DNA from: Acidobacteriota bacterium
GTDB lineage: Bacteria; Acidobacteriota; Blastocatellia; RBC074
DNA: 64,000 bases
Reading direction: 5' to 3'
Assembly: GCA_043718445.1 (NCBI GenBank)
Contig: JAYSVR010000026.1
Location: forward strand, 2,900 to 66,899
Of the stretch, positions 11,901 through 57,516 are shown one piece after another (position 1 is the stretch's first letter; each line of letters begins with the position of its first letter). A program made the position numbers and the translations under genes. The notes under the pieces were generated by a model. It made no database searches, was not told the origin of the DNA, and saw only the letters and a program-made list of their open reading frames with translations.

Positions 11901-12348
11901 GTTGGGCGGCATCTTTACGTTGCAAGACGGCTTCCCGTTCACGGTGCTGTGCGGGCCGGGCAACATTCAAAACGGCGGCGGCGTTTGTTATCCCGACTCG
12001 ACCGGAATCAATCCGAATCTGTCGCGCGATCAACAAACCCGTACGCGCTTTTTCAACCTCGACGCTTATGTTGATCGCATTCCGGCGACGGGCAATTTCC
12101 GCTACGGTACGACCGGACGCAATTCGGTCACCGGGCCGGGCATCATCAGTTTGGATGCTTCGCTCAACAAGAAGTTCAACTTCAGCGAATCGAAGTATCT
12201 TGAATTCCGCACCGAAGTTTTCAACGCACCCAATCATCCGATTTGGAATCCGCCGGGCAATCAATTGCGTACGCCGAATGCAGGCGTAATCACCAGCACC
12301 AAGATTGATTCGCGGCAGCTTCAGTTCGGTTTGAAGTTGGTTTTCTGA
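8995..12348 (+). CDS. TonB-dependent receptor-like outer-membrane protein with an N-terminal carboxypeptidase-regulatory-like (CarboxypepD_reg) domain
   Basis: 1117-aa ORF. A signal peptide is followed by ISGVVSDQTAAAVAGVKVSLVNLATNATREVQTNDSGLYAF (Cna-B/CarboxypepD_reg-like), then a plug/barrel. It ends in a beta-barrel terminal LQFGLKLVF. Confidence 0.8.
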   Translation: MLKRNIVVTLLLAVLFIAPLRAQTPSGEISGVVSDQTAAAVAGVKVSLVNLATNATREVQTNDSGLYAFPALSPAVYTLKAEKQGFRAVERKNIEVLVGSANRIDLALEVGELTNVVEIAGGAPILQSENASIGTVIENRSIVELPLNGRNYLQLTSLIPGATTNGPASAQGQQRMGGQRNSFALNVSGQRIHFNHYSLDGIENTDLNFNSYMLLPSIDAIQEFKVEAGLFDAEYGRAIAQINVSTKSGGNQFHGTLFEFLRNSSLDAKNYFDRADRPIPPFKRNQYGATVGGPVWIPKVFNGKDRLFFLFNWEGLRERKALTQTINVPLAAERLGDFSATGVTIYDPRTRVFDAAGNVTSAPTPFAGNRIPDNRIHPVVKKLLAFYPNPQNGNRVGNYLNDESKRIDADQYTYRIDFTESSNSSWFFRHSISHELGLDPYPIPNMGINTDTDVQQGVIANTRTIGSSKVNDMRIGLSRLVNGHISPRANVQNVVKELGINIPSDNPLYWGVPNIGITGISGLGEESDAPFINYDTTFQLIDNFSWTFGKHSAKFGGEWRRVRYNQIGGVVTRGRFNFDGRYTQLPQLLNQPAPPAAQRGGAPLADFLLGHFNNAEGQIGAPVANFRSNYFALYAQDNWKITPKLTLNYGVRWENDQPFRDKHDAIVNIDFRWDNSIEPTYVRAGTGDPYGGSVPFRLASDIKYVRDGRFGSRAYRNDLNDIAPRLGIAYQINSKTVLRTGAGIYYVRDIGNAVFDIVRNAPFTVRRNEPAESFRPNLSFEQPFARTGAPTFILINQFDEPSSYVAQWSFGFQREITSDMTAEITYFGSAGIHLRRLQSYNNPEPSQLPNTNNARPFPKFGSFQVMNAPSHSSYHALYMKAQRRFSNGLTFISSFAWGKSIDNGSGVRTSVGDSLTPSNNYNLQLERGLSAFDFRRRSTTSGLWALPIGKGQKLNLENKVANFLIGGWQLGGIFTLQDGFPFTVLCGPGNIQNGGGVCYPDSTGINPNLSRDQQTRTRFFNLDAYVDRIPATGNFRYGTTGRNSVTGPGIISLDASLNKKFNFSESKYLEFRTEVFNAPNHPIWNPPGNQLRTPNAGVITSTKIDSRQLQFGLKLVF

Positions 12349-16111: not shown

Positions 16112-16135
16112 AGGCAAGAGACTCAGTGGCAAACG

Positions 16136-16230
16136 GCATTCTCAATTCCCCATTCTCAATTCTTATACAGAAGAAACATTGGCTTACAGTTTTCTCTTTA
16201 AAAGAATTGAGAATGGGGAATTGAGAATGC
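16136..16230. repeat. Perfect 29-bp-arm inverted repeat (gcattctcaattccccattctcaattctt / aagaattgagaatggggaattgagaatgc) with a 37-nt loop, between sdhA and sdhB
   Basis: Read directly from the sequence. Each arm also contains the direct repeat attctcaatt twice. Confidence 0.6.
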
Positions 16231-16267
16231 CGATGCCGCAATGGTTCGGTTTTAAGGAGACGCATAA

Positions 16268-34497: not shown

Positions 34498-35670
34498 CTA
34501 AGGCAAACCAACATAATTTTCTGCCAGTGCTGTGGCTGCCGCTCGCGAACTCACTACGTAATCCAATTCAGACAGTTGCAATCGTTGCTGAAAATCACTC
34601 TGCTCAGGAAAGCGATGCAACAACGAAGTCATCCACCACGAGAAATGCTGAACGCGCCAAACGCGGCGCAAACAGGTCGTCGAATAAGCCGCCAGCAATT
34701 CCCGCTGGCCCGCCTGATAAAAAGCTGCGAACGCTTGCGACAAAACGCGCACGTCGGCCATCGCCAGATTCATGCCTTTCGCTCCCGTTGGCGGAACGAT
34801 GTGCGCGGCATCGCCTGCCAAAAACAACTTGCCGAATTGCATCGGTTCCGCGACGAAGCTGCGCATCGGCGTAACGCCTTTTTGCAGGATCGTACCTTCA
34901 GTCAGTTGCAAGCTGGTATCAGCGCCCAGACGTAATTCCAACTCTTCCCAAATGCGCGCGTCAGGCCAGTGCGCGATGTCTTCGTCTGGCGCACATTGCA
35001 AATAAAGCCGCGTGATCTCTGGCGTACGCATACTGAACAACGCAAAGCCGCGCGGATGATGGCAATAGATCAATTCATCGGAAGGAGGTTTCGATTGCGC
35101 CAGAATGCCGAGCCAGCCAAAGGGGTAAACCCGTTCATAAATTTGCAACGCACTGGCGGGAATCGCTGAACGCGCAATGCCGTGAAAGCCGTCGCATCCG
35201 CCAATGAAATCACAAGCGATCTCGTGTGACTCGCCGTCTTTGCGAAAGCGAATCTTCGGCGCGTCGGAATCAAGGTCGTGCAGGCTGGTGGCTTCGGCTT
35301 CAAAGTGCAGCGGCAAGCCCGCGTCGAGCCGCACTTGAATCAAATCCTTCACGACTTCCTGTTGGCCGTAAACCGTGATCGCGCGCCCGCCCGTCAGTTC
35401 GTGTAAATCAAGGCGATGCCGCGCGTTGTTAAAACTTAGTTCAAGGCCGTGATGAACCAACCCTTGCCGCCGCATGCGTTCGCCGACACCGGCTTCGTTC
35501 AGCGTGTCAACGGTTCCCTGTTCCAACACTCCGGCACGCACGCGGCTCTCGACATACTCGCGGCTGCGGCTTTCGATCACGATGGATTCGATGCCTTGCC
35601 GATGCAACAAGTGTGCAAGCAACAAGCCCGCCGGGCCTGCGCCGATGATGCCGACCTGCGTTTTGATCAA
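34498..35670 (-). CDS. pobA: 4-hydroxybenzoate 3-monooxygenase
   Basis: IGAGPAGLLLAHLL, CDGFHG and LAGDAAHIVPPTGAKGMNLA motifs. 390-aa length. Confidence 0.9.
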   Translation of the reverse strand: MIKTQVGIIGAGPAGLLLAHLLHRQGIESIVIESRSREYVESRVRAGVLEQGTVDTLNEAGVGERMRRQGLVHHGLELSFNNARHRLDLHELTGGRAITVYGQQEVVKDLIQVRLDAGLPLHFEAEATSLHDLDSDAPKIRFRKDGESHEIACDFIGGCDGFHGIARSAIPASALQIYERVYPFGWLGILAQSKPPSDELIYCHHPRGFALFSMRTPEITRLYLQCAPDEDIAHWPDARIWEELELRLGADTSLQLTEGTILQKGVTPMRSFVAEPMQFGKLFLAGDAAHIVPPTGAKGMNLAMADVRVLSQAFAAFYQAGQRELLAAYSTTCLRRVWRVQHFSWWMTSLLHRFPEQSDFQQRLQLSELDYVVSSRAAATALAENYVGLP

Positions 35671-36141
35671 TTACGTCACCGTATAAAAGTCCAACAACAC
35701 AGCCGCTTTGGTGCGTACGCCGGAACACACAGCGACGACGCGATTCAACCAATCGTATTTAGCAGCGCCCGTTTCAAACACCGGCACGGCGCGAAAGTAA
35801 TACTTCGCCGGATCAACTTCATCGCCGCGCGCGATGGCCGCCAACACTTCGGGCGAGCCATGCCGCACGCCGGTGTTACGCACATAAATCAACGCGCCGT
35901 CTTCGGTGCGCAGCGTGTAACGCGCTTCGAGCAACGCCGTACCGTCTGCCGCGACGATTTGCCAATCTGCGCCGCCTGGCAAAACTTCGCCGCGCAAGCG
36001 CGCGCCTTCTACGCGCCCGCCCGTGATCGGGATGATGCGGCGTTCGCCCGTCAGCACCTTGCCGATGCTTTGCGGCGGAGCCAGCGTGATGCTCAGGTGC
36101 GCGAGCAACTCAAGTTTTGGCGTGACTGGTTTCAAGTCCAT
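35671..36141 (-). CDS. DUF3237-family beta-barrel protein
   Basis: The pattern RRIIPITGGRVEGARLRGEVLPGGADWQ is typical of DUF3237. The start MDLKPV is preceded by AAGGTG. The gene abuts pobA. Confidence 0.6.
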   Translation of the reverse strand: MDLKPVTPKLELLAHLSITLAPPQSIGKVLTGERRIIPITGGRVEGARLRGEVLPGGADWQIVAADGTALLEARYTLRTEDGALIYVRNTGVRHGSPEVLAAIARGDEVDPAKYYFRAVPVFETGAAKYDWLNRVVAVCSGVRTKAAVLLDFYTVT

Positions 36142-36152
36142 AGATTCACCTT

Positions 36153-37244
36153 TTAACCCCAGACTTCGCGCGCCGTTTCGGCCACCAACTTTAACTTGGC
36201 TTCCTGATCGGCAGGCGTAACAAGATTGCCTTCGAGCGTCGAAGCAAAGCCGCACTGCGGACTGAGCGCCAACCGGTCGAGCGAAATATATTGCGCAGCT
36301 TCGTTGATGCGGCGTTTGAGTTCGTCCTGACTTTCGAGTTCAGGTTTTTTAGTGCTGACCAGTCCTAAAACGCCGACGCGATCTTCGGGCACTTCGGCCA
36401 GCGGCTCGAATCCGCCCGAACGCGCATCGTCGAATTCGAGCAGGAAGCGGTCGAACTTGGTTTGCTGAAAGACTTTCGTAATCGGGCCGTAATCGCCTTG
36501 CGCGTAAAACTTGCTCTGGTTGTTGCCGCGACACAGATGCAAACCGAACTGAACGGTAGCCCCCTTGCCTGAAAGCTGGCTGATGATTGCGTTATCCATC
36601 TCGATAGAAAGGTCGAGCAAGCGGTCGGGATCGTTGCCGCGTTGCCGATAGCCCTCACGCAACGCCGGATCAAGCAACGCAGTATATTGCGGTGAATCAA
36701 TTTGAATATATTGGCAGCCGAGGCGAATCAGTTCGTCAATTTCGCCGCGCAAAATGTCTACGAGATCGGCGAGGTAAGCGTCCACCGTGGCGTATGCGCC
36801 TTTCGATTTGTCTGCGTCGTAATAGGCCGCCGCCTGTTGCGCACTGACCAGCGTCGTCTTCGCCGGGCGCGTCGTACTCGCGCGCAGCCAGGTGAACTCT
36901 TCGGCGCACATATGCCGCTTGCGCTGTAACTTTGAAACTACGACGGGACGTTGCAACACGAGTTCTTCGCCCGCGTCATTGCGGAACGGAATCGCCCAGC
37001 CGCCGTATTTGTCGAAGCCCTCGACGGCATCAATCAAGTGGCCGTAAAACGCATAGCGCCGCATCTCTCCATCGGTGACGACTTCGATGTCGGCACGTTC
37101 CTGCAACTCAACGGCTTCGCTAACGGCGCGGTCTTCGATTTGTTTGAACAGCGTGTCTGACAACTCGCCCGCTTCATGCTTGACGCGCGCGTCTTTCAAA
37201 TAAGCTGGTCGCAACAGGCTTCCTACTACATCGCTTCGATACAC
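36153..37244 (-). CDS. MetE-family (cobalamin-independent methionine synthase C-terminal-domain-like) Zn-dependent methyltransferase
   Basis: 363-aa UroD/MetE-like barrel. His-x-Cys Zn motif in GLHLCRGN and distal Cys in PQCGF. GTG start preceded by AAGGAG. Confidence 0.7.
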   Translation of the reverse strand: MYRSDVVGSLLRPAYLKDARVKHEAGELSDTLFKQIEDRAVSEAVELQERADIEVVTDGEMRRYAFYGHLIDAVEGFDKYGGWAIPFRNDAGEELVLQRPVVVSKLQRKRHMCAEEFTWLRASTTRPAKTTLVSAQQAAAYYDADKSKGAYATVDAYLADLVDILRGEIDELIRLGCQYIQIDSPQYTALLDPALREGYRQRGNDPDRLLDLSIEMDNAIISQLSGKGATVQFGLHLCRGNNQSKFYAQGDYGPITKVFQQTKFDRFLLEFDDARSGGFEPLAEVPEDRVGVLGLVSTKKPELESQDELKRRINEAAQYISLDRLALSPQCGFASTLEGNLVTPADQEAKLKLVAETAREVWG

Positions 37245-37260: not shown

Positions 37261-37367
37261 ACGTAGCGCAGACTTCAGTCTGTGACCCGTATCGCGGACT
37301 TTAGTCCGCCAGTCATGCGCAGACTAAAGTCCGCGATACGGGTCACAGACTGAAGTCTGCGCTACGT
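37261..37367. repeat. Perfect palindrome: 46-bp arms (37261-37306 / 37322-37367) around a 15-nt loop, filling the intergenic region upstream of the MetE-like gene
   Basis: The arms are exact reverse complements. Each arm contains the smaller palindromes cagacttcagtctg and gcggactttagtccgc. Confidence 0.65.
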
Positions 37368-38336: not shown

Positions 38337-40457
38337 TTATTTTCCCTTCGCATCGTGCGCGCGTTTGATGACATAAGCCTGAATCGCCCTGATCTCATCT
38401 TCTTTCAATACGCCCGCGTAACTCGGCATGCCTTTGCTGGCAATGCCGTTTTGCACAATGCTGACAAAGGCTTCGTGCTGGTTTTGATTCAAGCGGCGTA
38501 GGTCGGCAATCACTCCGCCCCCGACGGCTGCTCCGCCGTGGCAGGTTGAGCAATAGGCCGTGTAAAGCATCCGTCCGCCTTGTATGACTTGCTCAGAAGC
38601 CACCAACGGCGGAGGCGCGGGAATTGGCGAATCTGGTGGCAACGGCGGTAAGACAGCTTTGCCACCGAGTTTGAAAGTGAGTACGCGCGCGATTGATTTC
38701 ACTTTGGCCGCCGCCGCGATGTCGCCGCCGATCACGCCCAACACACCGCCCCATCCCGCCATCACCGTCACGTATTGCTCGCCCTTAACTGTATAAGTAA
38801 CCGGCGGCGCGATGATGCCGGTTTGCGCCGCGACTTCCCATAGTTGTTCACCTTTATCGGCGGAGTAAGCAACGACGCGCCCGTCAGTCGTACCGATAAA
38901 AACCAAATTGCCAGCGGTCGAAAGCACGCCGCCGTTGAGCGGATGTTTATACGTGACTTTCCCCGCAGGCCACGCAGGCTTTTGCGTGACGGGGTTCCAA
39001 GCCAACAAATATCCGACGCTGCCGGCGACCATTTGTTTGATGGTGGCTTCGTCTTCAGGATTCGGAATCGGCAGTTGCGCTACGTTAAAGCCGCGCTTGC
39101 CAGGTTTGTAATTGGGATCGTTGCTGTAAGGAAACGCCATGTCTTGCGTAGGCAAATAAACCAAGCCTGTCAGCGGCGAATAAGACATCGGATGCCAGTT
39201 ATGTCCGCCAATCGGGCTTGGCATAATCAGTTTTATTTCTTTGGAATAATCCGTCGCGGCAGCGTCTTCTGCCGGACGCCCGGTCTTCGAGTCTACGTGC
39301 GAAGCCCACGTGACGTTGACGTATTTTTCGGCTGAGATGAACTCGCCCGTCTGACGATCAAGCACATAAAAGAATCCGTTTTTCGGCGCTTGCATAATGA
39401 CCTTGCGCGGCGTCGTTCCTGAAGGGTCGCCTAGTTTGAGTTCCGCCAAAATCATGTGCTGCGTCGCGGTGAAATCATATTTATCGCCCGGCGTCGTCTG
39501 GTAATGCCACACGTATTCGCCCGTGTCGGCCTTGACCGCGACGATAGAAGAAAGAAACAGATTGTCGCCGCCACCGGGACTGCGCGCGTAAGAACTCCAC
39601 GGCGAGCCGTTGCCTACGCCGAGGTAAAGCAAATTAAGTTCGGGGTCATAAGCCATCGAATCCCACACCGTACCGCCGCCGCCGTATTCCCAGTACTTGT
39701 CGCCCTTCCAGGTTTTCGCCGCCATCTCAAGCGCCTTCGATTCATAAGGTTTTTTCGGATCGCCGGGCACGGTGAAAAAGCGCCACGCCTGCTTGCCTGA
39801 TTTCGCGTCATAAGCCGTCGCGTAACCTCTGACGCCGAACTCGCCGCCCGCATTGCCAATCACGATATTTTTGCCCGCGATGCGCGGCGCTCCAGTAATC
39901 GTATAAGGCCGCGCGCGATCAGTGATCGTATCAACCCGCCACGCGCGCTTGCCCGTCGCGGCATTCAGCGCATCCAGATAACCATCCAGCGTCGCAACAT
40001 AAACTTTGCCTTCCAGCACTGCGACGCCGCGATTGACTACGTCGCAGCAGGCATTGGCTGAGACTTCACGATTCACTTGCGGGTCATACTTCCACAGCAA
40101 CTTGCCCGCAGCGGCGTCGAACGCATAAACAATGCTGAAGGCTCCAGTCGTATACATCACGCCGTCCACGACGATGGGCGAAGCCTCTACGCCACGATCT
40201 ATGTCGAGCTTGTAATGCCACGCGAGGCCAAGCTGTTTCACGTTCTGTTCGTTGATCTGTTTGAGCGGCGAGAATCGTTGTTCGTCAAAGGTGCGCCCGT
40301 GCGCCAGCCAGTTGCCCTGATCGTTTTTAGTTTCAGCAATAATTCGTGCGACGGTGACGTTGCCAGACTTTTTGGATTGGCTGCTGACCGTTGAGTGACG
40401 TTCTGATATGACAGTGGTTAACAGCGTTGCAATGACCGCGACTTTTAACTTATTCAT
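38337..40457 (-). CDS. PQQ-dependent quinohemoprotein alcohol dehydrogenase (type II; PQQ propeller plus C-terminal cytochrome c)
   Basis: Signal peptide. The PQQ-ADH motifs GNWLAHGRTFDEQRFSPL and W-repeat blades are present. C-terminal heme site CSTCHG. Confidence 0.85.
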   Translation of the reverse strand: MNKLKVAVIATLLTTVISERHSTVSSQSKKSGNVTVARIIAETKNDQGNWLAHGRTFDEQRFSPLKQINEQNVKQLGLAWHYKLDIDRGVEASPIVVDGVMYTTGAFSIVYAFDAAAGKLLWKYDPQVNREVSANACCDVVNRGVAVLEGKVYVATLDGYLDALNAATGKRAWRVDTITDRARPYTITGAPRIAGKNIVIGNAGGEFGVRGYATAYDAKSGKQAWRFFTVPGDPKKPYESKALEMAAKTWKGDKYWEYGGGGTVWDSMAYDPELNLLYLGVGNGSPWSSYARSPGGGDNLFLSSIVAVKADTGEYVWHYQTTPGDKYDFTATQHMILAELKLGDPSGTTPRKVIMQAPKNGFFYVLDRQTGEFISAEKYVNVTWASHVDSKTGRPAEDAAATDYSKEIKLIMPSPIGGHNWHPMSYSPLTGLVYLPTQDMAFPYSNDPNYKPGKRGFNVAQLPIPNPEDEATIKQMVAGSVGYLLAWNPVTQKPAWPAGKVTYKHPLNGGVLSTAGNLVFIGTTDGRVVAYSADKGEQLWEVAAQTGIIAPPVTYTVKGEQYVTVMAGWGGVLGVIGGDIAAAAKVKSIARVLTFKLGGKAVLPPLPPDSPIPAPPPLVASEQVIQGGRMLYTAYCSTCHGGAAVGGGVIADLRRLNQNQHEAFVSIVQNGIASKGMPSYAGVLKEDEIRAIQAYVIKRAHDAKGK

Positions 40458-40610: not shown

Positions 40611-40707
40611 GATCGGTTTTCAGTTAGGTTTACGGGAAAACCTTAAACGCGATGTAGGGCAGGTTAAGAACCTACCCTACACCCGTAAACGCAATTGCAA
40701 ACCGATC
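40611..40707. repeat. Nested triple inverted repeat (outer gatcggttt/aaaccgatc, middle gtttacggg/cccgtaaac, inner gtagggcaggtt-aag-aacctaccctac) between an SDR gene and the PQQ-ADH gene
   Basis: Read from the sequence. The inner hairpin shares its core with the 23748-23813 REP-like elements. Confidence 0.5.
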
Positions 40708-41453
40708 TAGTGCAAATAACCGCCGCCATCGCACAAGATCATTTGCCCCGTAATCAATTCGGCGTCATCGCTCGCCAGAAAAGCGATGAGTCCGGCGAGG
40801 TGTTCGGGCTTGCCGCGTTTCTTGATAGCCTGATTGCCCATCACGCGGTTGAAGGCGGCTTCGTCTGAATGCGCCATTGTCCCTTCGGTAGCGATCATGC
40901 CCGGCGCGACGGCGTTCACACAGATATTGTCGTCGCCCATCTCTTTTGCCATCACGCGCGTCATTCCCATCACTGCGCCTTTGGCGGCGACATAAGCCAT
41001 CTGCCCCGGATTTGCCAAAAAATAAGTGCGTGACGCCACGTTGATCAGCCGCCCGTATTCGCTTTTTTTCAGCAACGGATAAATCGCTTTCGACACGAGG
41101 AAGTAGCCGAGATAATTGACCTGAATAAAACGATTCACTTCTTCATACGACAACTCGTGCCAGGGCGTCTTGCCAGAGAGGATGCCCGCGTTGTTGACCA
41201 GAATGTCTACGCGCTCGTGCCGCGACGCGATGGCGGCGACGGCTTGCGCGATTTGCGCTTCGCTTGTGACATCACAGATTTCAGCGTGCGCTTGTCCGCC
41301 CGCCGCGCGAATTTCATTCACGGTTTCGGCGGCATCATTGATGTCGAGAATTTCGACGGCAGCACCATCTGCCGCCAACCGAATTGCCGCAGCCTTGCCA
41401 ATACCGACTGCCGCGCCTGAGACGACTGCGACACGATTTGCTAAACGAGTCAT
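40707..41453 (-). CDS. SDR-family oxidoreductase
   Basis: VAVVSGAAVGIGKAAA and a YxxxK catalytic pair. The start is set at MTRLANR to avoid a 100-bp overlap. Confidence 0.8.
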   Translation of the reverse strand: MTRLANRVAVVSGAAVGIGKAAAIRLAADGAAVEILDINDAAETVNEIRAAGGQAHAEICDVTSEAQIAQAVAAIASRHERVDILVNNAGILSGKTPWHELSYEEVNRFIQVNYLGYFLVSKAIYPLLKKSEYGRLINVASRTYFLANPGQMAYVAAKGAVMGMTRVMAKEMGDDNICVNAVAPGMIATEGTMAHSDEAAFNRVMGNQAIKKRGKPEHLAGLIAFLASDDAELITGQMILCDGGGYLH

Positions 41454-41488
41454 GTGATTTTCCTTTGCTTGCCTTTGCTTGAATAAAA

Positions 41489-42268
41489 TTAGAGTTGCGG
41501 ATTCCGCAAGCTCGGCAAGCCTACGCCTGCCGCATCGAAGCCGCCGTCTACTGCGAGTATTTGTCCGTTGATAAAACTGGCAGCGTCGCTGCATAAAAAT
41601 ACGACGGCGTGGGCGATCTCATCCACTGTGCCGTAACGCGCTAACGGAATCGCATCGCGGTAACTGGTGCGAATGTCTGCCGAATGCACTTGCGCCGCCA
41701 TCGCCGTTTCGACCGGGCCGGGCGCGACCGCGTTCACACGAATGCCGACGTTGCCGTATTCGACCGCCTGCTGTTTGGTCAGATGCATCAACGCCGCTTT
41801 GCTCGTGCCATAAGCGATGCGCAACGTACTCGCACGCAATCCCGAAATCGAAGCGATGTTCACAACGCTGCCACCGCCGGATCGCAACATCACCGGCACG
41901 CAGGCTTGCGTACACAAAAACGGGCCGTTCAAATTCGTCGCCATAACGTGCGACCAATCATCAAACGTAGTTTCGAGCGCAGGTTTGAAAACAGCTACGC
42001 CCGCGTTGTTGACCAATGAGTCAATGCGACCGAAGTGCGCGGCGATTAGATCAATGGCCGTTTGCACTTGTTGTGAATTCGATACGTCGCATTCAACCGT
42101 CAGCGTCGCCAGCGTAGTTTGATCGCGCAAAGCCTCCGCTGTTTGCGCCAGCGTCGCCGCGTCGTAATCAAGCAACGCTACGCGATAACCGGTTGCCAGA
42201 AACTTTTGCACAATCGCCAAGCCAATGCCGCGAGCCGCACCGGTGACGACTGCTACTTTTTCATTCAT
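41489..42268 (-). CDS. SDR-family oxidoreductase
   Basis: VAVVTGAARGIGLAI and NNAG motifs. Confidence 0.8.
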   Translation of the reverse strand: MNEKVAVVTGAARGIGLAIVQKFLATGYRVALLDYDAATLAQTAEALRDQTTLATLTVECDVSNSQQVQTAIDLIAAHFGRIDSLVNNAGVAVFKPALETTFDDWSHVMATNLNGPFLCTQACVPVMLRSGGGSVVNIASISGLRASTLRIAYGTSKAALMHLTKQQAVEYGNVGIRVNAVAPGPVETAMAAQVHSADIRTSYRDAIPLARYGTVDEIAHAVVFLCSDAASFINGQILAVDGGFDAAGVGLPSLRNPQL

Positions 42269-42283
42269 AGGATTTATTCCGTA

Positions 42284-43387
42284 TTACTGACGAGCGTTCA
42301 GGTTTGCCAGCGTATCTTTTAGTTTCGCTTGTTCGGCCTGATTGGCGGGCAATTTTTTGGCGTGAAAAGCCGGAAGCAATTTATCCCACACGACGTTGAG
42401 TTCGGCTTGCATATCTTTGGTGTTCGCCGTGATCGCAATCACGGCGTCGAGTTCGGGCAGGATGATGCAAAATTGTCCGTTGGCTCCGTCGCCGCGATAG
42501 GCATTGTGGCGGCAGCGCCAGAATTGAAAGCCGTAACCTTGATCCCAATCGCGCGCCGGATCGCTGCCGTTAGAAACCTGCTTTGCCGTAGCCTGTTCGA
42601 CCCACGCCGTCGGAACCAATTGCTTGCCGTTCCATTTGCCCTTTTGCAAATAAAGCTGGCCGAATTTGGCGATGTCTTCAGTGCGAACTTTCAAGCCCCA
42701 GCCGCCAAAAGTTTCGCCCTGCGGATTCACGGGCCACTCAGGATTCTCGATGCCTAACGGTTCAAACAAACGCGGCTTCAGATATTCGAGTACGTTTTGA
42801 CCAGTCACTTTGCTCACAATCGCCGACAACATAAAGCTGCCCGGCGTGTTGTATTGAAAGTGCGTGCCGGGTTTGTGCGCTACCGGATGCGCCAAAAATG
42901 TTTTCACCCACGGTGCAGTCGAGGTCAGCAACTTGGTTTCTTCGTTATGGCCGGTCGTCATCGTCAACAGGTCGCGCACACGCATCTGTTTGAGTTTGTC
43001 TGACGGTTCGGCGGGCGCTTGTTCGGGGAAAAATTTCAAGACCGGATCGTCTACGTTCAACTTGCCTTCCGCGACGGCCAAACCAATCGCCGTCGAAGTA
43101 AAACTCTTGCTCAACGAATGCATCACGTGTGGTTTCTCAGCGGCTTCGGGCTTCCACCAACCCTCTGCGACAACGTGACCGTGCCGTATCAACATAAAGC
43201 TGTGCATCGAATTGACCTGCTTATCGGCGGCTTCGACGAAAGCGCGAATGACGGCGGAATCTACGCCTTGCACTTCGGGCGTACTGCGCGGCAGTGCGAC
43301 TTTGGCGGCGGGCGCTGAATGTCCAATCGCAAGTGACGACAGTCCAACCAACATCACAACAAACAAAAATCTCAAACTCTTCATCAA
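42284..43387 (-). CDS. Serine hydrolase of the beta-lactamase/transpeptidase-like family, secreted
   Basis: Signal peptide and the SxxK motif MHSLSKSF. Confidence 0.7.
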   Translation of the reverse strand: MMKSLRFLFVVMLVGLSSLAIGHSAPAAKVALPRSTPEVQGVDSAVIRAFVEAADKQVNSMHSFMLIRHGHVVAEGWWKPEAAEKPHVMHSLSKSFTSTAIGLAVAEGKLNVDDPVLKFFPEQAPAEPSDKLKQMRVRDLLTMTTGHNEETKLLTSTAPWVKTFLAHPVAHKPGTHFQYNTPGSFMLSAIVSKVTGQNVLEYLKPRLFEPLGIENPEWPVNPQGETFGGWGLKVRTEDIAKFGQLYLQKGKWNGKQLVPTAWVEQATAKQVSNGSDPARDWDQGYGFQFWRCRHNAYRGDGANGQFCIILPELDAVIAITANTKDMQAELNVVWDKLLPAFHAKKLPANQAEQAKLKDTLANLNARQ

Positions 43388-43443
43388 CTTTCACTCCTCA
43401 TTTTTCTGCCCGAATTTTTCTATTTGCTAAAAGACTATCGCCT

Positions 43444-44355
43444 TTAGCGCATTCCTACTGAAATAAACCGTAACGCCTCGGGCAAGCCGGTGCGCCAATA
43501 CTCCCACGTATGCCCACCGTCCCGCACTCGGTATTCGTGCGGAATGGCGCGGTCGCGCATCAACACGTGCAACAGTGAATTGCCCGTATACAACGCGCCG
43601 TCATCGTCGCCGCAATCCAGATAAAACCGGACGGCGTGCTTTTGCTTATCCGGCAAATTTTTCATCAAGTCGAGAATGCTGTTCTTACGCCAGAAATCCC
43701 AAAACTCTTTATTGCTACGCGGGTCGCCTTCTTTGCTCTCGCCCAACGCGGCTTTATAGCGGCGCTGGAATTCAGGCAGCGTCAGCTTGTTGACTTCTTC
43801 GTCGGTGCGCACCGCCGCGCTCATCGCGTAACAAGTTTGAAAGAGTTCTGGATGATGCAACGAATAAAGCAAGCTGCCGAAACCGCCCATAGACAATCCG
43901 GCAATCGAACGAAAGCGTTTTTCGGCGCGCGTGCGATAGGTTTTCTCGACGTGCGGAATGAGTTCCTTGATGAAGTAATCTTCGTACTGATATTCGCCGC
44001 GCAGGTGATTGAGATAAAACGTCATCTCGGCGTCAGGCATGACAACGATCATCGGATCGGCTTGTCCCGCGCGCCCGCTTGTATTAATGCTGGCATCAAC
44101 GATGGACTGCATATTGCCGAGTTGAATCCAGTCGCTGTGATCGCCTCCGCCACCGTGTAGCAGGTACAACACCGGATAGCGCCGCTGCGACGTGTCATAT
44201 CCGCCGGGCAAATAAACCGAATACTTCATTTCTTTTTTCAGGGTTTGGCTCTTGATCGTCAACCCTTCGACAACGCGGCTCTCTTGTGCGCACGATGCGA
44301 TGACGCATCCACACAGCATAAAACCCAAAAACAATTTGTTTATTTGATTCATCAT
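43444..44355 (-). CDS. Esterase (putative esterase/enterochelin-esterase-like alpha/beta hydrolase)
   Basis: YPVLYLLHGGGGDHSDW and GLSMGGFGSL nucleophile elbow. Confidence 0.75.
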   Translation of the reverse strand: MMNQINKLFLGFMLCGCVIASCAQESRVVEGLTIKSQTLKKEMKYSVYLPGGYDTSQRRYPVLYLLHGGGGDHSDWIQLGNMQSIVDASINTSGRAGQADPMIVVMPDAEMTFYLNHLRGEYQYEDYFIKELIPHVEKTYRTRAEKRFRSIAGLSMGGFGSLLYSLHHPELFQTCYAMSAAVRTDEEVNKLTLPEFQRRYKAALGESKEGDPRSNKEFWDFWRKNSILDLMKNLPDKQKHAVRFYLDCGDDDGALYTGNSLLHVLMRDRAIPHEYRVRDGGHTWEYWRTGLPEALRFISVGMR

Positions 44356-49719: not shown

Positions 49720-50883
49720 TTATTTCTCTGTCAGTTCGCGTTGCAAACGTTTCATTTCACCGTGTACGGCGTGCAAGGTCATTAGCGCGTGCAACGGATG
49801 CGCACCCGCCGCCACGATGCGTCCGGCGTTGTCGCTGATCTTGGCTGTCGTGCCGACTTCAGCCAACGCGCGCGCCGCGTCGTGGCAATCTGCGCGTAAC
49901 TGATATTCCAGAGTTACGCCATCGAAGTCGGTCAACAAGCGGCGACGCAGCGCGCTGTCGTGCCTCATATCGAACAGCAGCTTGTTCAAGTGATAAGCCT
50001 CAGCGGGCGGGTGTGCATAAAATGCAAAGCCGCCTTGGTCTTTGAAAACATAAGCGGGCGGCGCGACTTCGGGTGGCACAGCGCGTTCGCGTTGCGGCAA
50101 AAAGCGTATCATCGCGTGTCCGTGATGCCACGTCGGCGTGTATTGGATAAGCTCGCCCGGCACTGCGCCAATCGCACCGAACATCACGGCCCACGGCAAA
50201 AGTTCAGTGTTGCCAACTTCGTCAAGTTGTTCTGAAGTCAAAGCCAACAGCGTCTCGATGCGTCCGTGTTCGAGTTCGGCAATCATCCATTTGTCGAAAT
50301 CGAATTCCGGCTGCGGATACTTCCAAGTGCCCGGATAGTGCGACATGCCGCCGCTGGCAATGATACAAACTCTTTCTTTGCGCGACGCGACGACCTCAGC
50401 CAACGCGCGTCCGAACGCCGCACAACGCTTGGGCGTAGGCAGCGGCGGCATATAGACATTCGCATGAATCGGCACGACCGGAATCTCACGTCCACCAATA
50501 ACAAACTCGAACGGCACGGCAAACGTATGCCCCAACACCGCGTCTTCTGAATAAGCCAGATCAAAATCGTTGCGCACCAGTTGATTCAGCAAGTCTTCGG
50601 CGTATTCACGATGAATCGGCAGATCGAATTTGCGTCCGGCGAATTCCGCCGTCGCGCGATTGCCCGCGACAATCGCAAACGTAGGCACGCAACCAATCGA
50701 AAACGTTTCGAGGTGATCACTGCCGAGAAACAGAATCACATCGGGTTTGGTCTCATCCAGAATCTTGCCGAGTTCGCGCATGCCCGCGATGCTGGCATCG
50801 AGTTGCGCTGGGTCTTCGTCCGGCGGATAAGTGAAAAGTTGCGGTGCGTGGCAGGTGGCAAAAGCGGCTACGATCTCACCCAT
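49720..50883 (-). CDS. Class III extradiol ring-cleavage dioxygenase (LigB family, with a C-terminal LigA-like extension; gallate/protocatechuate-4,5-dioxygenase-like)
   Basis: LigB motifs CHAPQL, LGSDHLE and the conserved His pattern. 387-aa fused architecture. Confidence 0.7.
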   Translation of the reverse strand: MGEIVAAFATCHAPQLFTYPPDEDPAQLDASIAGMRELGKILDETKPDVILFLGSDHLETFSIGCVPTFAIVAGNRATAEFAGRKFDLPIHREYAEDLLNQLVRNDFDLAYSEDAVLGHTFAVPFEFVIGGREIPVVPIHANVYMPPLPTPKRCAAFGRALAEVVASRKERVCIIASGGMSHYPGTWKYPQPEFDFDKWMIAELEHGRIETLLALTSEQLDEVGNTELLPWAVMFGAIGAVPGELIQYTPTWHHGHAMIRFLPQRERAVPPEVAPPAYVFKDQGGFAFYAHPPAEAYHLNKLLFDMRHDSALRRRLLTDFDGVTLEYQLRADCHDAARALAEVGTTAKISDNAGRIVAAGAHPLHALMTLHAVHGEMKRLQRELTEK

Positions 50884-51583
50884 TCTGATTGTCTCCCCCC
50901 TCGGTATATTCGACGTATTCGACGCCTAACTCAGCCAGCTTTGCACGCAAGCCTTGAATGTTGACACTATATTCACCGGCCTTTAAGCGCGCGCGAACTT
51001 GCTCTTCTTTCTCAACTCGTTCTTGCCCCAGCCGTGCGACTTCGGCGGCGTGCGCGCGTGGGACGATGACGACACCGTCTACGTCACCGACAACGACATC
51101 ACCGGGGTTCACCTGCGCGCCTGCGCAAACGATGGGCACGTTCACCGAACCGGGCACCACTTTCAGCGGCCCTTGCGCTGAAATTGCTTTGGCCCACACG
51201 GGAAAATTCATCGTCGTGAGATCGGCTACATCGCGTATGCCTGCATCCAAGATCAAGCCGCGTATGCCGTGAGTCTGACACGAAGTCCCCATCAGTTCGC
51301 CGAACATGCCGCAGGTCGAAGGTGAAGTCGTTGCCACGATTAACACGTCGCCCGGCTGACAAACTTCAATCGCGGCGTGAATCATCATGTTGTCGCCGGG
51401 GTGGCATAAAACTGTTATGGCAGAACCAGCCAGCCGCGCCGTCGGATAGATCGGACGCATATAAGGTTGCAGCAAGCCCGTGCGATTTTGCGCCTCTGAG
51501 ACCGTGGCGGAACCTTGCGCGCCCAGCGCCTTGATAAGTTCAGCATCGGCGCGCTGAATGTTTCTGACGACTACGTTTTTCAT
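50876..51583 (-). CDS. RraA-like 4-hydroxy-4-methyl-2-oxoglutarate / 4-carboxy-4-hydroxy-2-oxoadipate aldolase
   Basis: RraA/MenG fold (GDVLIV, GIRGLILDAGIRD). The start MKNVVVRN is ATGA-coupled to the upstream gene. Confidence 0.75.
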   Translation of the reverse strand: MKNVVVRNIQRADAELIKALGAQGSATVSEAQNRTGLLQPYMRPIYPTARLAGSAITVLCHPGDNMMIHAAIEVCQPGDVLIVATTSPSTCGMFGELMGTSCQTHGIRGLILDAGIRDVADLTTMNFPVWAKAISAQGPLKVVPGSVNVPIVCAGAQVNPGDVVVGDVDGVVIVPRAHAAEVARLGQERVEKEEQVRARLKAGEYSVNIQGLRAKLAELGVEYVEYTEGGDNQNG

Positions 51584-52308
51584 GAAATCGGCTCCATCGT
51601 GACTTGCGGATAAACGCGTTGAAAGGCTTCGGCGTAAACAATCGCGGGATTGCCCGAATTGCGTCCGCCCTGCGTGCCGCGCCGTTTGGCAACGTCGGTG
51701 TAGTAATTCCAGAGATGCGTTTGCGCATCCATGCAATGCATCGCTTTGACCTTCGTTTCAAACACCAGCGTGATGTCCAAAATCACATCCGGCTTGAACT
51801 CGCACATCTCGGTTTGATGCGGCTCGAAATAAAACACGGGCGGAGCGCCCAGATGTTTGTGTTCGCTGGGATAACCCATTGCTTGAGCATAAATGCGCGC
51901 ATTCATCGTGAGTTTAGAAGTCTCGACGTGATCGCCGTTGTAAGGGTCAATCGGCGTATGCGTCATCACGCACGTTGGTTGATAACTGCGAAATTCCTGC
52001 ACGAGTTCTTCGGTCAGTTGCGGCGTCACGCCCAACGGATAATCGCCCGCATTAAAGCAGCGAATCTCTGCACCCAATGTTTCAGCGGCCTTGACGGCTT
52101 CGGCGTGGCGAATCTCTTTAACCTTTTCGATAGTCATGCCTTCTTTCTTCCACAGCCCTTGCGACTCGCCGCGTTCGCCATAAGACAAACACAGCACCCG
52201 CACCCGCGCGCCGCGCGCCGCATAAAGCGCAATGGCTCCGCCCGCGCGCCAGACGAAATCAGCCGCATGCGCGCTGACAACCAACAAACGTTCATTCTCC
52301 CAACTCAT
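51580..52308 (-). CDS. LmbE/PIG-L-like Zn-dependent enzyme (candidate 4-oxalomesaconate hydratase, GalB-like)
   Basis: PIG-L motif LLVVSAHADDFVW-like (AHAADFVW) and the HxxH region. The gene sits in the operon with the ring-cleavage dioxygenase and aldolase. Confidence 0.55.
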   Translation of the reverse strand: MSWENERLLVVSAHAADFVWRAGGAIALYAARGARVRVLCLSYGERGESQGLWKKEGMTIEKVKEIRHAEAVKAAETLGAEIRCFNAGDYPLGVTPQLTEELVQEFRSYQPTCVMTHTPIDPYNGDHVETSKLTMNARIYAQAMGYPSEHKHLGAPPVFYFEPHQTEMCEFKPDVILDITLVFETKVKAMHCMDAQTHLWNYYTDVAKRRGTQGGRNSGNPAIVYAEAFQRVYPQVTMEPIS

Positions 52309-52376
52309 TGCTATCCTCTCTCAAGTCTCAAATCTGAAATGTCAGTTTTCTTAGGAAATTGAATACTCGCTTTGGT

Positions 52377-52471
52377 TTGAGTGGGAATTCGCCACAAAGA
52401 AGCACATAAACCACAAAAGAAAAGAAAAATTTTGTGGCTCTTGTGCTTTTTTGCGGCGAATTCCCACTCAA
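52377..52471. repeat. Long imperfect inverted repeat (about 40-bp arms with about 6 mismatches, 11-nt A-rich loop) between the amidohydrolase and LmbE-like genes
   Basis: ttgagtgggaattcgccacaaagaagcacataaaccacaaaa ... ttttgtggctcttgtgcttttttgcggcgaattcccactcaa. Confidence 0.5.
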
Positions 52472-52505
52472 GTTAAAGGTAGAATTTAAATTTCCAAACA
52501 AGCTC

Positions 52506-54651: not shown

Positions 54652-57516
54652 ATGGCAGACCAATTCAACTACGACGTATTCCTGAGCCACAGCAGCCACG
54701 ACAAAGACATCGTGCGCGCCGTCGCCGAACGCTTGCGGGCAGACGGGCTGCGCGTGTGGTTGGATGAATGGATATTGAAGCCCGGCGACAGCGTTCCGGC
54801 GAAGATTGACGAAGGCTTGGAGCAGTCGCGCGTGCTGGTGCTGTGCATGTCCGCGCAGGCGTTCGGCTCTGACTGGGCGCAGTTGGAAAGTTATACGTTC
54901 CGGTTCCGCGACCCGCTGAATAAAGGGCGGCGCTTCGTTTCGCTGCGACTCGATGCGGCAGAGATCAAGGCTTCGCTGGCGCAATTCTTCTATATCAACT
55001 GGCTGCCGGAAGCGCGCGAGCAAGAGTATGCCAAGTTGCTTGAAGCCTGCCGCCCGCCTGCTCCGCCCTTGCTTGACCGGCGCGCCGTGGAGCTAGCCTA
55101 TCTGAACCGCTTGCAGGCAGAAGAAGAACTCGATCAAAACCGGCAAACGCGGCGTTACACGCAACTCGGCGGGCAGGCGCAAAAGCTTCGTCCTAAAGTC
55201 TGCGCGGCATACGAACGCCGCTCGGCGCGCGAGGGCGAGCCGCAAGCGCCCGAGCCGGTTGAGAACGTCGTTGAAACAATTCTCACGCTGCGACAAGCCG
55301 CGTTGCTCGGCGAACCCGGGGCCGGCAAAACCACTACGCTTTGGTTGCTGGCCGTCAACTTGCTCGCAACGGCACGCCAAAATTCAGCAGCGCCGCTGCC
55401 ATTGTTGATTCGTTTGGGGCGCTGGACCGAAGCCGAACAAACGCTGCCGGCGTTTATGGCTGCGCAATTGGGGGAACTCGGCGCGCATCTCGAAACGCTC
55501 CTCCAAGAAAAACGCGCGGCGTTGTTGTTAGATGGCTTGAATGAATTGCCCGTCAGCCAGCGCAAAAGCAAATATCCGCAAGTGCAAAAACTCATTAAGC
55601 AATATCCGCAGTTGCTGGCGGTCGTTTCGTGCCGCCAGCTCGATTACGAAGACAAAGATAATGAGCTTAAGCTGGGCTTTGATGTCATCAACATCAAGCC
55701 GCTCGACCCGCTGCGGATGCTTGAGTTTGTGCAACGCGATTTGGGTGATGACGAACTGGGCGAGAAAATGTTTTGGGACGAGTTGGCGGGTAAGGATACG
55801 CAACAAACCTATCAACGCTTTAGGCAGGAGGTCGCCAGCCAATTGAAAGAGCCGGAACAGACTTTCTGGAACGCAGGCCGCTTGCCGTCGGGCGTGTATT
55901 GGGGTTGGCGTTATCGCGACGAAAAAGACGAGAAGCCTGACAACAGCTATTGGGAAAACTGGCTGAAGCGGCGCGACCAGCCCTCGAGCCTGATGCTGAT
56001 GGCGCGTAACCCTTACCTGCTTTCGATGCTGGTTTCAGAATTCGCGGAGGCGCGCAAACTGCCGGACAATCGCGGCGATTTGTTTCGGGCCTTTGTCAAA
56101 CGCTTGCTGCAACGCGAATGTGAGTCGTTGACCGATGAGGCACAACAAACGGCCTTGCGCGGCGAGCACGAAACCTTAAAGCAGAAACTTGCGGAACTCG
56201 CTTTCGCCATGCAGGTTCGCCGGAATGAAGGCACAGAAAGCGATGCCTGGACGGCGCTGCCCAAAGCCGCCGCGCTCGACATTTTGACCGAGCCGCAATT
56301 TTATCTGGCGGGCAACGCCAGCATCCTCAGCCTTAATGAACCGGTGCGCTTTTCGCATCAACTCTTGCAGGAATATTTCGCTGCGCAATTCATGGACATC
56401 CGCTTCCGCGCCGGAGACTTGCAAGCCGAAAAGCTGTGGCCGCGCACCAACTGGTGGGTGCGCACGAACTGGGAAGAGGCCGCAGTGTTATGGGCAGGCT
56501 TGAAAACCGCTGATTGCTCAGAGGTCGTCGAATGGATCGCCGCCGCCAACCCCGAAGTCGCCGCGCAATGCATCGTGCGCAGCGGCGCGCATACGCCTGA
56601 CGCCACGAGCGCACGGTTGCGTGACCAATGGTTGCCGCGTCTGGCTGATCTAAATCTCGAACCTGAACCGCAAGCCCGCGCCGCGCTTGGGCGCGCGTTA
56701 GGGCAAATTATCGGCTTGGATAATCGTCAGGGGATTAGCTTGCCTGACCTCAAGCGCGACGAAAGCTGGATCGAAATTCCCGGCGGTAAGTTTCAATACG
56801 GATTAGCCAATGACGACTGGGCCGCGAAACCGAGCCAGCCAGATTTAGCTACTTTCTGGATCAGCCGCTATCCGGTCACGCACGCGCAATTCCGCTGCTT
56901 TCTGGATGACGCCGAAGGGCACGGCGACTCGCGTTGGTGGGAAGGCTTGGCAGCGAACGAAGACAGCCGCCAACCCGTCGAACCGTCTTTCAAATTCGAC
57001 AATCATCCCCGCGACACGGTGAATTGGTACGAAGCCGTCGCCTTTTGCCGCTGGCTGTCGTGGCGTTGGGGCGGTGGCTATGACTTGCGCAAGATTGACG
57101 ACTGGAAGGTGCGGCTGCCCACCGAGTTTGAATGGGAGAAAGCGGCGCGCGGGACTGACGGGCGGCTCTATCCATACGAGGGCGAATTCGACCCGACCAA
57201 GAGCAACGTGGATAAAACTGGTATTGGCAAGACTAGCGCCGTGGGAATTTTCCCCAACGGTGCGTCGCCTTATGGCGTTGAAGAAATGAGCGGCAACGTG
57301 TGGGAGTGGTGCTTGAGCGATTACGACAAGCCGCAAAAAGACGCACGCAAAGAGAAATTGGGCACGGATAATAATCGTGTCCTGCGGGGCGGCGCGTGGA
57401 ACTACGATCGGGACGACGCGCGCGCCGTCTTTCGTAACCTCAATCCGCCGGGCTTCCGTAACGACGATCTCGGTTTTCGGGTGGTGTTGTTTCGTCCCCC
57501 TTCTGTTCTGCTCTGA
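54652..57516 (+). CDS. TIR - NACHT-like STAND NTPase - FGE/SUMF1(formylglycine-generating-enzyme fold) three-domain protein, a candidate immune sensor/effector
   Basis: TIR: YDVFLSHSSHDKDIVRAVAERLRADGLRVWLDEW...KIDEGLEQSRVLVLCMSAQAFGSDWAQLE, with a Glu in the GLEQS position. NTPase: Walker A GEPGAGKTT, Walker B LLLDGLNEL, sensor VVSCRQ. C-terminus: FGE-sulfatase fold (YPVTHAQF..NHPRDTVNWYEAVAFCRWLS..RLPTEFEWEKAARG..YPYG..SPYGVEEMSGNVWEWC..RVLRGGAWNYDRDDARAVFRN..GFR) but with no Cys in the region where FGE has its catalytic cysteine pair. Confidence 0.85.
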   Translation: MADQFNYDVFLSHSSHDKDIVRAVAERLRADGLRVWLDEWILKPGDSVPAKIDEGLEQSRVLVLCMSAQAFGSDWAQLESYTFRFRDPLNKGRRFVSLRLDAAEIKASLAQFFYINWLPEAREQEYAKLLEACRPPAPPLLDRRAVELAYLNRLQAEEELDQNRQTRRYTQLGGQAQKLRPKVCAAYERRSAREGEPQAPEPVENVVETILTLRQAALLGEPGAGKTTTLWLLAVNLLATARQNSAAPLPLLIRLGRWTEAEQTLPAFMAAQLGELGAHLETLLQEKRAALLLDGLNELPVSQRKSKYPQVQKLIKQYPQLLAVVSCRQLDYEDKDNELKLGFDVINIKPLDPLRMLEFVQRDLGDDELGEKMFWDELAGKDTQQTYQRFRQEVASQLKEPEQTFWNAGRLPSGVYWGWRYRDEKDEKPDNSYWENWLKRRDQPSSLMLMARNPYLLSMLVSEFAEARKLPDNRGDLFRAFVKRLLQRECESLTDEAQQTALRGEHETLKQKLAELAFAMQVRRNEGTESDAWTALPKAAALDILTEPQFYLAGNASILSLNEPVRFSHQLLQEYFAAQFMDIRFRAGDLQAEKLWPRTNWWVRTNWEEAAVLWAGLKTADCSEVVEWIAAANPEVAAQCIVRSGAHTPDATSARLRDQWLPRLADLNLEPEPQARAALGRALGQIIGLDNRQGISLPDLKRDESWIEIPGGKFQYGLANDDWAAKPSQPDLATFWISRYPVTHAQFRCFLDDAEGHGDSRWWEGLAANEDSRQPVEPSFKFDNHPRDTVNWYEAVAFCRWLSWRWGGGYDLRKIDDWKVRLPTEFEWEKAARGTDGRLYPYEGEFDPTKSNVDKTGIGKTSAVGIFPNGASPYGVEEMSGNVWEWCLSDYDKPQKDARKEKLGTDNNRVLRGGAWNYDRDDARAVFRNLNPPGFRNDDLGFRVVLFRPPSVLL

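Follow-up and report, generated by a model that had tools for sequence, protein, structure and literature searches.

A MetE-like zinc enzyme beside pobA in a Blastocatellia genome and its clade: a candidate methyltransferase for methoxylated aromatic acids

Why should a zinc methyltransferase of the MetE family be encoded just ahead of 4-hydroxybenzoate 3-monooxygenase, and from which donor would it take a methyl group? The question is raised by a 64,000-nucleotide (nt) stretch of an Acidobacteriota bacterium of the class Blastocatellia (contig JAYSVR010000026.1 of assembly GCA_043718445.1), hereafter the window, in which a MetE-like gene, a DUF3237 gene and pobA follow one another on the minus strand. 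We found that the MetE-like gene represents a clear-cut clade whose aromatic-catabolic context is conserved over several phyla, within a family previously known by name only. Our tentative answer, to which we assign a probability of roughly 40%, is that the protein, needing neither folate nor a corrinoid, is an aryl-methyl-ether:homocysteine methyltransferase that supplies 4-hydroxybenzoate or protocatechuate; we infer both the methyl donor and the direction of flux.

The MetE-like protein and its clade

The MetE-like open reading frame (ORF) begins with GTG, has an AAGGAG ribosome-binding site 5 nt 5' of the start, and encodes 363 amino acids (aa). The chosen start is supported because homologues of 359–363 aa open with the same N-terminus, MYRSDVVGSLLRP. 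PF01717 (Meth_synt_2) is the only Pfam match of the protein (E = 1.3e-22, 81 bits against a cut-off of 21, residues 6–335) and places it in the MetE catalytic-domain superfamily (URO-D/CIMS clan). The closest solved structure is the uncharacterized Listeria innocua protein 1YPX (E = 5.9e-57, full length), by which the fold is already set. Residues were assigned by alignment to MetE structures and relatives, using the definitions of Price et al. 2021 (PMC7857596). The zinc ligands are H236, C238, E270 and C331 and the homocysteine binders S9, E60 and D183 (H641, C643, E665, C726 and S433, E484, D599 in E. coli MetE; PMC7857596), and both sets are invariant in 88 sequences, 49 from the clade described below and 39 outgroup. 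With both sites conserved, the enzyme almost certainly alkylates a zinc-activated thiolate, that of homocysteine or a close analogue. Two protein lengths, 363 and 359 aa, result from a four-residue insertion just before the HLC zinc motif: at residues ~222–232 (window positions 36550-36600) the window protein and one relative (P0110) read SQLSGKGATVQ where most relatives have GxHPGVQ.

Canonical folate-dependent MetE (two barrels, ~750 aa) was ruled out by the 363-aa length, the single PF01717 match and the score against the full-length model TIGR01371 (51.9 bits, cut-off 929.95), and a Pfam scan of the protein detected no folate-binding N-terminal Meth_synt_1 domain. An earlier note, made from the letters of the window, had described a zinc methyltransferase of the MetE family, a description that Pfam, TIGR01371 and residue conservation uphold, the protein being a single-barrel enzyme distinct from housekeeping full-length MetE. 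MesD/MesX was ruled out as well: the match to 3RPD (E = 2.4e-8) spans residues 6–194 only, PRK09121 gave 60 bits against 392, and DUF1852 (MesX) was absent among the annotated window genes, in loci L001–L005 and among the commonest families of the ±2 neighbours in 36 other clade loci. For MesA, MesB and MesC the best archaeal model, PRK04326, reached 114.6 bits (cut-off 406), and no corrinoid-protein gene, a condition for their context, was found in the annotated loci; these too were ruled out. The protein had no Pfam match to the known aryl O-demethylase families (GCV_T, Rieske/VanA, p450, MtaA-type). It scored below the NCBIfam cut-offs of PRK06520 (258 bits, cut-off 313) and of PRK06233, the YxjG/H-type model (227 bits, cut-off 576). 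Four further clade members also remained below the PRK06520 cut-off (241–283 bits), which the Klebsiella (724.5) and alphaproteobacterial outgroup (351) proteins pass. By sequence comparison, we assign the protein to the uncharacterized YxjH/1YPX/PRK06520 branch and not to MetE, MesA, MesB, MesC or MesD. Two domain fusions, P0176 (618 aa) and P0134 (493 aa), were considered as a clue to the donor and carry no second Pfam domain.

Identity to the window protein is at least 61% inside the clade and at most 50% for everything else. In a HMMER search of 1.84 billion cluster representatives (clustered at 50% identity), the score stepped from 539 bits (67% identity) to 330 bits (50%) at the next full-length match, followed by a tail of 35–47%; in the genome scan, 44 loci lay at 61–92% and 36 at 38–46%, with nothing between. 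The clade was monophyletic and taxon-coherent in a neighbor-joining tree. It occurs in Acidobacteriota (Blastocatellia, Terriglobia, Vicinamibacterales and “Acidiferrales”), in Chloroflexota (Thermomicrobiales, Ktedonobacteraceae, Sphaerobacter and Thermalbibacter), and in Methylomirabilota/Rokubacteria and Dormibacterota, and the nearest homologues of the window protein come from metagenome-assembled genomes (MAGs) of Blastocatellia and other Acidobacteria. Carriers of the clade include the 9.5-Mb contig ERZ25039588:contig_2533 and isolates such as Thermalbibacter longus. Paralogues belonging to the clade stand head to tail in L020 (two genes, 9962-12227) and L027 (three genes, 1707-5336), sharing 65–73% identity with the window protein, with flanking genes that have no Pfam match. 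Such tandem copies fit substrate diversification better than a housekeeping role. Twenty-three clade-specific conserved positions are listed, and we draw no conclusion from them. A loop peculiar to the clade follows the DGEMRR motif (residues ~62–105, RRYAFYGH...GGWAIPF) and might form a pocket for an aromatic carboxylate over the zinc. Plasmid homologues from Rhodococcus opacus, Rubrobacter and Klebsiella (35–44% identity, unrelated contexts) were set aside as a guide to the clade.

Gene neighborhood in the window and across relatives

ORFs were called in 89 loci plus the window, with weighting by GC content at third versus second codon positions (GC3-GC2), and clustered, and the recurrent clusters were annotated; in L015 and L037 the MetE-like gene has no ORF call in the clustered set. 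In the window, the gap between the MetE-like stop codon and the DUF3237 ATG is 11 nt, and the DUF3237 stop codon and the pobA TTG are separated by 0 nt. These operon-like gaps support the earlier reading of the three genes as one operon, with the 0-nt spacing confirmed and the proposed 12 nt being the coordinate difference of the first pair. The window pobA is 71–79% identical to those beside the MetE-like gene in L001–L005. Five Blastocatellia-type contigs with precomputed gene calls share the order (DUF1932)–MetE-like–(variable genes)–PobA, where the variable genes encode a 620-aa coenzyme A (CoA) ligase, an MFS transporter and DUF3237, all three being present in L005. The DUF1932 oxidoreductase is the usual upstream partner (seven of 11 Blastocatellia-like loci), and in L001 and L003 its gene runs into the start of the MetE-like gene. 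Its structural relatives, 3QSG and 4EZB in the PDB, are uncharacterized entries from structural genomics only. Tannase-family esterases, Amidohydro_2, shikimate dehydrogenase, LigB and a thioesterase of the 4-hydroxybenzoyl-CoA type (4HBT_2) are encoded near the Blastocatellia-type loci, whose constant partners are pobA or pca genes, often with a hydroxycinnamate-CoA ligase.

DUF3237 had been named as an operon partner. It is one in the window, and it is otherwise a variable insert, found in only five of 11 Blastocatellia-like loci. Its PDB matches are 4PUX, 3G7G, 3C5O and PhnH, and the family includes PhcF, PhcG and PinX, cofactor-less decarboxylases of lignin-derived dimers, and the hydroalkoxylase PhnH (PMC9942872, PMC12607616, PMC11969235). 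As an optional member of the operon, it probably serves a different step.

Across the clade, 12 of 48 loci carry pobA no more than 8 kb from the MetE-like gene, and six carry pcaHG in that range. At least one aromatic-catabolic gene was present within this distance in 20 of the 48 loci, or 24 when aryl-CoA ligases are counted, and in 14 of the 28 loci whose flanks extend 5 kb or more on each side. With CoA ligases counted, an aromatic-acid pathway neighbor was found in 11/11 Blastocatellia-like loci, 6/11 from Terriglobia and other Acidobacteriota, 2/3 from Vicinamibacterales, 4/14 from Chloroflexota (pobA directly adjacent in three) and 1/5 from Methylomirabilota. We see this linkage, with differing gene orders and strands, in no fewer than six separate subclades belonging to Acidobacteriota and Chloroflexota, and an outgroup acidobacterial clade (44–46% identity) adjoins pcaHG-pcaIJ-iclR. 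The probability of finding a single-copy gene such as pobA this near by chance is ~0.3% per locus by our own estimate (~16 neighboring genes out of ~5000), which excludes chance, with the Blastocatellia loci not being mutually independent.

Besides pobA, an aryl-CoA ligase is the most frequent immediate neighbor, and three non-orthologous kinds occur. The Fcs-like ligase of Blastocatellia passes PRK12582 and has 47–53% full-length identity to annotated feruloyl-CoA synthases of Ralstonia, Burkholderia and Terrarubrum. A 4CL-like ligase, shared by Terriglobia and the alphaproteobacterial relatives, has its nearest matches in plant 4-coumarate:CoA ligases (5BSW, E = 3e-97) and the feruloyl-CoA synthetase 8WEV, and in some loci a PaaK-type ligase stands beside the MetE-like gene. 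In L016, a 4HBT_2 thioesterase gene, a 5-nt gap, the MetE-like gene, a 3-nt overlap and a 4CL-like ligase gene follow in that order; L002 has thioesterase, MetE-like, MFS transporter and PobA, and in L034 a thiolase and a short-chain dehydrogenase/reductase (SDR) precede pobA. Feruloyl-esterase-type genes (CBM48-esterase, tannase family, BD-FAE) are common. We read the clade loci as utilization islands for hydroxycinnamate and hydroxybenzoate esters, feeding ring cleavage of protocatechuate or gallate. Neither GCV_T (LigM/DesA) nor Rieske (VanA) proteins were found in the annotated window genes or L001–L005, and GCV_T, Rieske, DUF1852 and corrinoid-protein families are outside the 25 commonest Pfam families of the ±2 neighbors in the 36 other clade loci.

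Other gene arrangements were also recorded. In six alphaproteobacterial outgroup loci (L055, L059, L063, L071, L072 and L084; 41–43% identity), a conserved block on the opposite strand upstream of the MetE-like gene comprises a TetR regulator, a 4CL-like CoA ligase and several recurring genes provisionally taken as a putative ABC transporter. This block suggests that the link to the ligase reaches beyond the clade. Two Acidobacteriota loci of Terriglobia type (L013 6705-8414 and L018 662-2326) encode, two genes ahead of the MetE-like gene and on the other strand, an AprA-like protein that carries an MT2 methyltransferase domain (PF23525, PF23526, PF23589). In two Acidobacteriota MAGs, a cytochrome P450 gene starts 2–6 nt after the MetE-like gene (L021 4937-6271 and L025 11127-12458). 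These P450s were rejected as known aromatic O-demethylases, their nearest solved relatives being uncharacterized, CYP97-like and BM3-like P450s.

The features of the window around the operon are listed in Table 1. Every gene from ~53.4 kb down to ~27.3 kb is on the minus strand, and the MetE-like gene is within a ~26-kb one-strand array for aromatic and ester catabolism. The LigB/aldolase pair belongs to a protocatechuate/gallate meta-cleavage pathway (NF006731, 321 bits, cut-off 179). SDR1 is 80–82% identical to the SDR adjoining LigB in L002–L004, and the receptor-like protein shows 25% identity over 1148 residues to an L001 gene product with CarboxypepD_reg and OMP_b-brl_4 domains. The DyP-like gene adjoins a cupin gene within the aromatic array and may relate to lignin oxidation. 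In promoter and terminator scans of 34–41 kb, hits were no more numerous than in shuffled sequence. No Rfam family reached its gathering score anywhere in the window, so that it has no S-adenosylmethionine (SAM), B12 (cobalamin) or T-box leader.

Table 1 Features of the window in the vicinity of the MetE-like gene.
Feature	Position	Strand	Evidence or remark
Large outer-membrane TonB-dependent-receptor-like protein, 1091 aa	31159..34434	minus	Directly downstream of pobA
pobA, 4-hydroxybenzoate 3-monooxygenase, 390 aa, TTG start	34498..35670	minus	TIGR02360 567.7 bits (cut-off 538.7); NF006091 634 bits
DUF3237 beta-barrel protein, 156 aa, ATG start	35671..36141	minus	PF11578, E = 3.9e-51
Core (single-barrel) MetE-like Zn/homocysteine-type methyltransferase, 363 aa	36153..37244	minus	PF01717, PRK06520 (below cut-off), 1YPX
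Near-perfect hairpin, 49-bp arms	37261..37367		Arms 98% complementary
NAD(P)-binding oxidoreductase (NAD_binding_2 + DUF1932), 295 aa	37369..38256	minus	PF09130, PF03446
PQQ-dependent alcohol dehydrogenase with C-terminal cytochrome c domain	38337..40457	minus	TIGR03075 626 bits (cut-off 480); PF13442
Two SDRs, beta-lactamase-fold esterase and PF00756 esterase (weak feruloyl-esterase-type match)	40707..44355	minus	Profile matches
DyP-type peroxidase-like protein, 508 aa	45650-47176	minus	Weak: TIGR01413 89.6 bits (cut-off 100.5)
LigB-type extradiol dioxygenase and LigK/PcmE-type 4-carboxy-4-hydroxy-2-oxoadipate aldolase	49720..51736	minus	PF02900, E = 4.9e-35; PF03737

The hairpin fills the 124-nt gap between the DUF1932 and MetE-like genes, with an RNA minimum free energy of –103.6 kcal/mol (z-score –17.8), and is not a canonical terminator since it lacks a U tract. 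It occurs once in the window and in none of the 89 fetched loci, and it looks like an inserted palindromic element because the two genes overlap in relatives. Two other long intergenic inverted repeats, 16134-16232 (44-nt arms, 91% complementarity) and 52344-52504 (75-nt arms, 76% complementarity), differ from it in sequence. Outside the array, positions 54652-57516 on the plus strand encode a 954-aa protein with TIR, NACHT and C-terminal FGE-sulfatase (formylglycine-generating-enzyme-like) domains, an unusual NLR-like architecture possibly for defense or signaling, and positions 1600-6830 on the minus strand carry a caspase-like pair with a small overlap, a 1161-aa TPR-CHAT protein followed by a 583-aa clostripain-family (C11) peptidase.

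The proposed reaction and other explanations

In the reading that we favor, a cytoplasmic single-barrel zinc enzyme would activate the thiol of homocysteine, or of a very similar amino-acid thiol, as MetE does. The methyl donor would be a methoxylated benzoate or cinnamate (4-methoxybenzoate, vanillate or a ferulate-type compound), either free or as its CoA thioester, and the zinc-bound thiolate would attack the methyl group by bimolecular nucleophilic substitution (SN2), a para-thioester stabilizing the departing phenolate. Methionine and the free phenol, 4-hydroxybenzoate or protocatechuate, would be released, and PobA and the enzymes of ring cleavage would consume the phenol. What the analysis shows is the family of the fold, the sites for zinc and homocysteine, the missing folate domain, the separation of the clade and the conserved neighborhood; we favor methyl transfer from a methoxylated aromatic because it is the simplest mechanism that uses the facts of site, clade, regulation, linkage and paralogues together. 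A wider joint claim, that the clade constitutes a new O-demethylase class passing methyl directly to homocysteine without folate, corrinoid, O2 or reductant, and that its substrates are lignin- or fungus-derived methoxylated aromatic acids, possibly CoA-activated, appears to us rather doubtful.

The role in methoxylated-aromatic metabolism that the earlier note proposed has fared unevenly. Its link to the hydroxybenzoate/protocatechuate route has been strengthened by conservation across classes and phyla, while O-demethylation itself is argued from context, with neither a characterized homologue nor literature support. The accompanying phrase “rather than methionine synthesis” does not stand, because the three homocysteine-binding residues are 100% conserved and the reaction likely still makes methionine, probably as a co-product.

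Several observations weigh against the proposed demethylation. About half of the clade loci, chiefly those of Chloroflexota and Methylomirabilota, have no recognizable aromatic neighbor, and the MetE-like protein is the most conserved of its cluster (79–86% identity versus 71–79% for PobA); non-aromatic loci and high conservation also suit a general housekeeping enzyme. The window itself encodes no CoA ligase. That known O-demethylase genes are missing from the loci is weak evidence for a substitute, because the loci likewise lack Ech- and Vdh-type side-chain genes. The main physiological objection is that a homocysteine-consuming demethylase cannot carry more than a modest flux unless methionine is recycled. 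Literature searches found no demonstrated activity or donor for any member of the YxjH-like branch and nothing tying any MetE-like protein to aromatic O-demethylation, and those on DUF1932 and “methionine synthase II” returned nothing relevant. Among distant relatives in Firmicutes, yxjH-luxS lies behind a Met T-box (PMC6004538), and this regulation points to plain methionine synthesis for the wider family.

The protein might accordingly be an ordinary YxjH-type core methionine synthase whose donor is unrelated to aromatics, its position in aromatic operons reflecting co-regulation; it could regenerate tetrahydrofolate (THF) from the 5-methyl-THF of a folate-dependent O-demethylase encoded elsewhere, or supply methionine during growth. 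Fully conserved homocysteine and zinc residues are what such an enzyme would have, as are the non-aromatic half of the loci and the very high sequence conservation; the wider family is methionine-regulated in lactobacilli (PMC6004538), and plasmid relatives (42–44% identity) occur in unrelated contexts, one beside folE and folP. Yet the folate-binding domain is absent, methyl-THF is not used by the characterized MesA, MesB and MesD (PMC7857596), the loci yielded no GCV_T-type demethylase, metF or SAM-cycle gene, and the window has none of the leaders searched for. The adjacency of pobA or pcaHG in at least six subclades, against the chance level estimated above, and the occurrence of tandem paralogues count against it further, and we regard this explanation as unlikely, though a serious one.

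The tight packing of thioesterase, MetE-like and ligase genes in L016 and the arrangement in L002 would suit a different chemistry, in which a zinc-thiolate alkyl- or aryl-transferase acts on a non-methyl electrophile of the hydroxycinnamate/hydroxybenzoate pathway, most plausibly an aryl-CoA thioester. It might occupy the dehalogenase slot of the 4-chlorobenzoate pathway, or cleave an ether or ester with 4-hydroxybenzoate or protocatechuate as the leaving group. The recruitment of three CoA-ligase families beside the gene and the thiolase and SDR in L034 would agree with this, and the MetE superfamily includes a non-methyl thiol alkyltransferase, epoxyalkane:coenzyme M transferase (XecA). The conserved binders of an alpha-amino-acid thiol argue for homocysteine, whose known users among the relatives all transfer methyl, and the same S/E/D triad argues, at the level of residues, against an XecA-like identity. 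As the window and several Blastocatellia-like loci lack any ligase and no precedent was found, we consider a non-methyl transfer distinctly improbable. Finally, the neighborhoods outside Blastocatellia and Terriglobia are heterogeneous, as they would be if the gene had no functional link to aromatic genes and merely inherited its place beside them in a few lineages. Against such inherited synteny, the linkage recurs in Blastocatellia, Terriglobia, Vicinamibacterales, three Chloroflexota subclades and the outgroup clade with differing orders and strands, and the gaps are operon-like (0–40 nt or overlapping), so that it has very little to recommend it.

Meaning and comparison with known systems

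Removal of methoxy groups is a gateway step in the bacterial use of lignin-derived aromatics. To our knowledge, only four enzyme types perform it: Rieske, P450, THF-dependent and corrinoid-dependent. If the demethylation proposed here is true, it would add a fifth and mechanistically simpler route, based on zinc and homocysteine, and would account for the handling of methoxylated aromatics by widespread soil phyla that are hard to culture. In Acidobacteriota and Chloroflexota, both abundant in soil, aromatic catabolism would then be tied to a synthesis of methionine that needs no B12, linking carbon turnover to the economy of methionine and B12. Lignin valorization would gain a small demethylase that works without oxygen, and there would be a hint at the methyl donor of the whole YxjH-like branch. 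Even with another donor, the clade is a concrete lead to the methyl donor of the large “methionine synthase II” family.

The closest known systems are the YxjG/YxjH-type proteins (1YPX; PRK06233, PRK06520), named “cobalamin-independent methionine synthase II family protein” by NCBI. Like the window protein, they are single barrels of ~360–375 aa with identical zinc and homocysteine residues and no established donor; the window protein differs in sharing only ~35–46% identity with this branch and in scoring below both models, as did nine of ten relatives scored against PRK06520. Firmicute YxjG/YxjH members lie behind a Met T-box or S-box, whereas the clade lies in aromatic-acid operons and the window has no such leader. 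Canonical MetE (EC 2.1.1.14) has a homologous catalytic barrel with His-Cys-Glu-Cys zinc coordination and Ser/Glu/Asp homocysteine binding, and in addition the Meth_synt_1 barrel for methyl-tetrahydropteroyl-triglutamate, which the window protein lacks. MesA, MesB, MesC and MesD/MesX (PMC7857596) resemble it in concept, as half-size MetE proteins with a non-folate donor, and MesD depends on an adjacent gene of unknown function. These proteins are distant in sequence and belong to a Wood-Ljungdahl or methanogenesis context, in contrast to the aromatic catabolism seen here.

With the known aryl O-demethylases, the MetE-like protein would share its position in the pathway, from a methoxylated acid to 4-hydroxybenzoate or protocatechuate. 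These enzymes comprise LigM/DesA (THF-dependent, GcvT fold), VanAB (Rieske), the P450s GcoA and CYP199A, and the corrinoid-dependent three-component systems of anaerobes, the last of which move the methyl group by nucleophilic displacement, as proposed here. None is homologous to the MetE-like protein, and the proposed reaction would differ in needing no folate, corrinoid, O2 or reductant and in passing methyl directly to homocysteine. The operon of the 4-chlorobenzoate pathway, which encodes a CoA ligase, a dehalogenase and a thioesterase ahead of PobA, offers a likeness of another kind: L016 and L002 follow a similar logic, in which a thioesterase and a ligase accompany an enzyme that acts on a para-substituted aryl compound, with PobA nearby. 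The middle enzyme of that operon is a crotonase-fold dehalogenase, whereas here it is a zinc-thiolate MetE-like protein.

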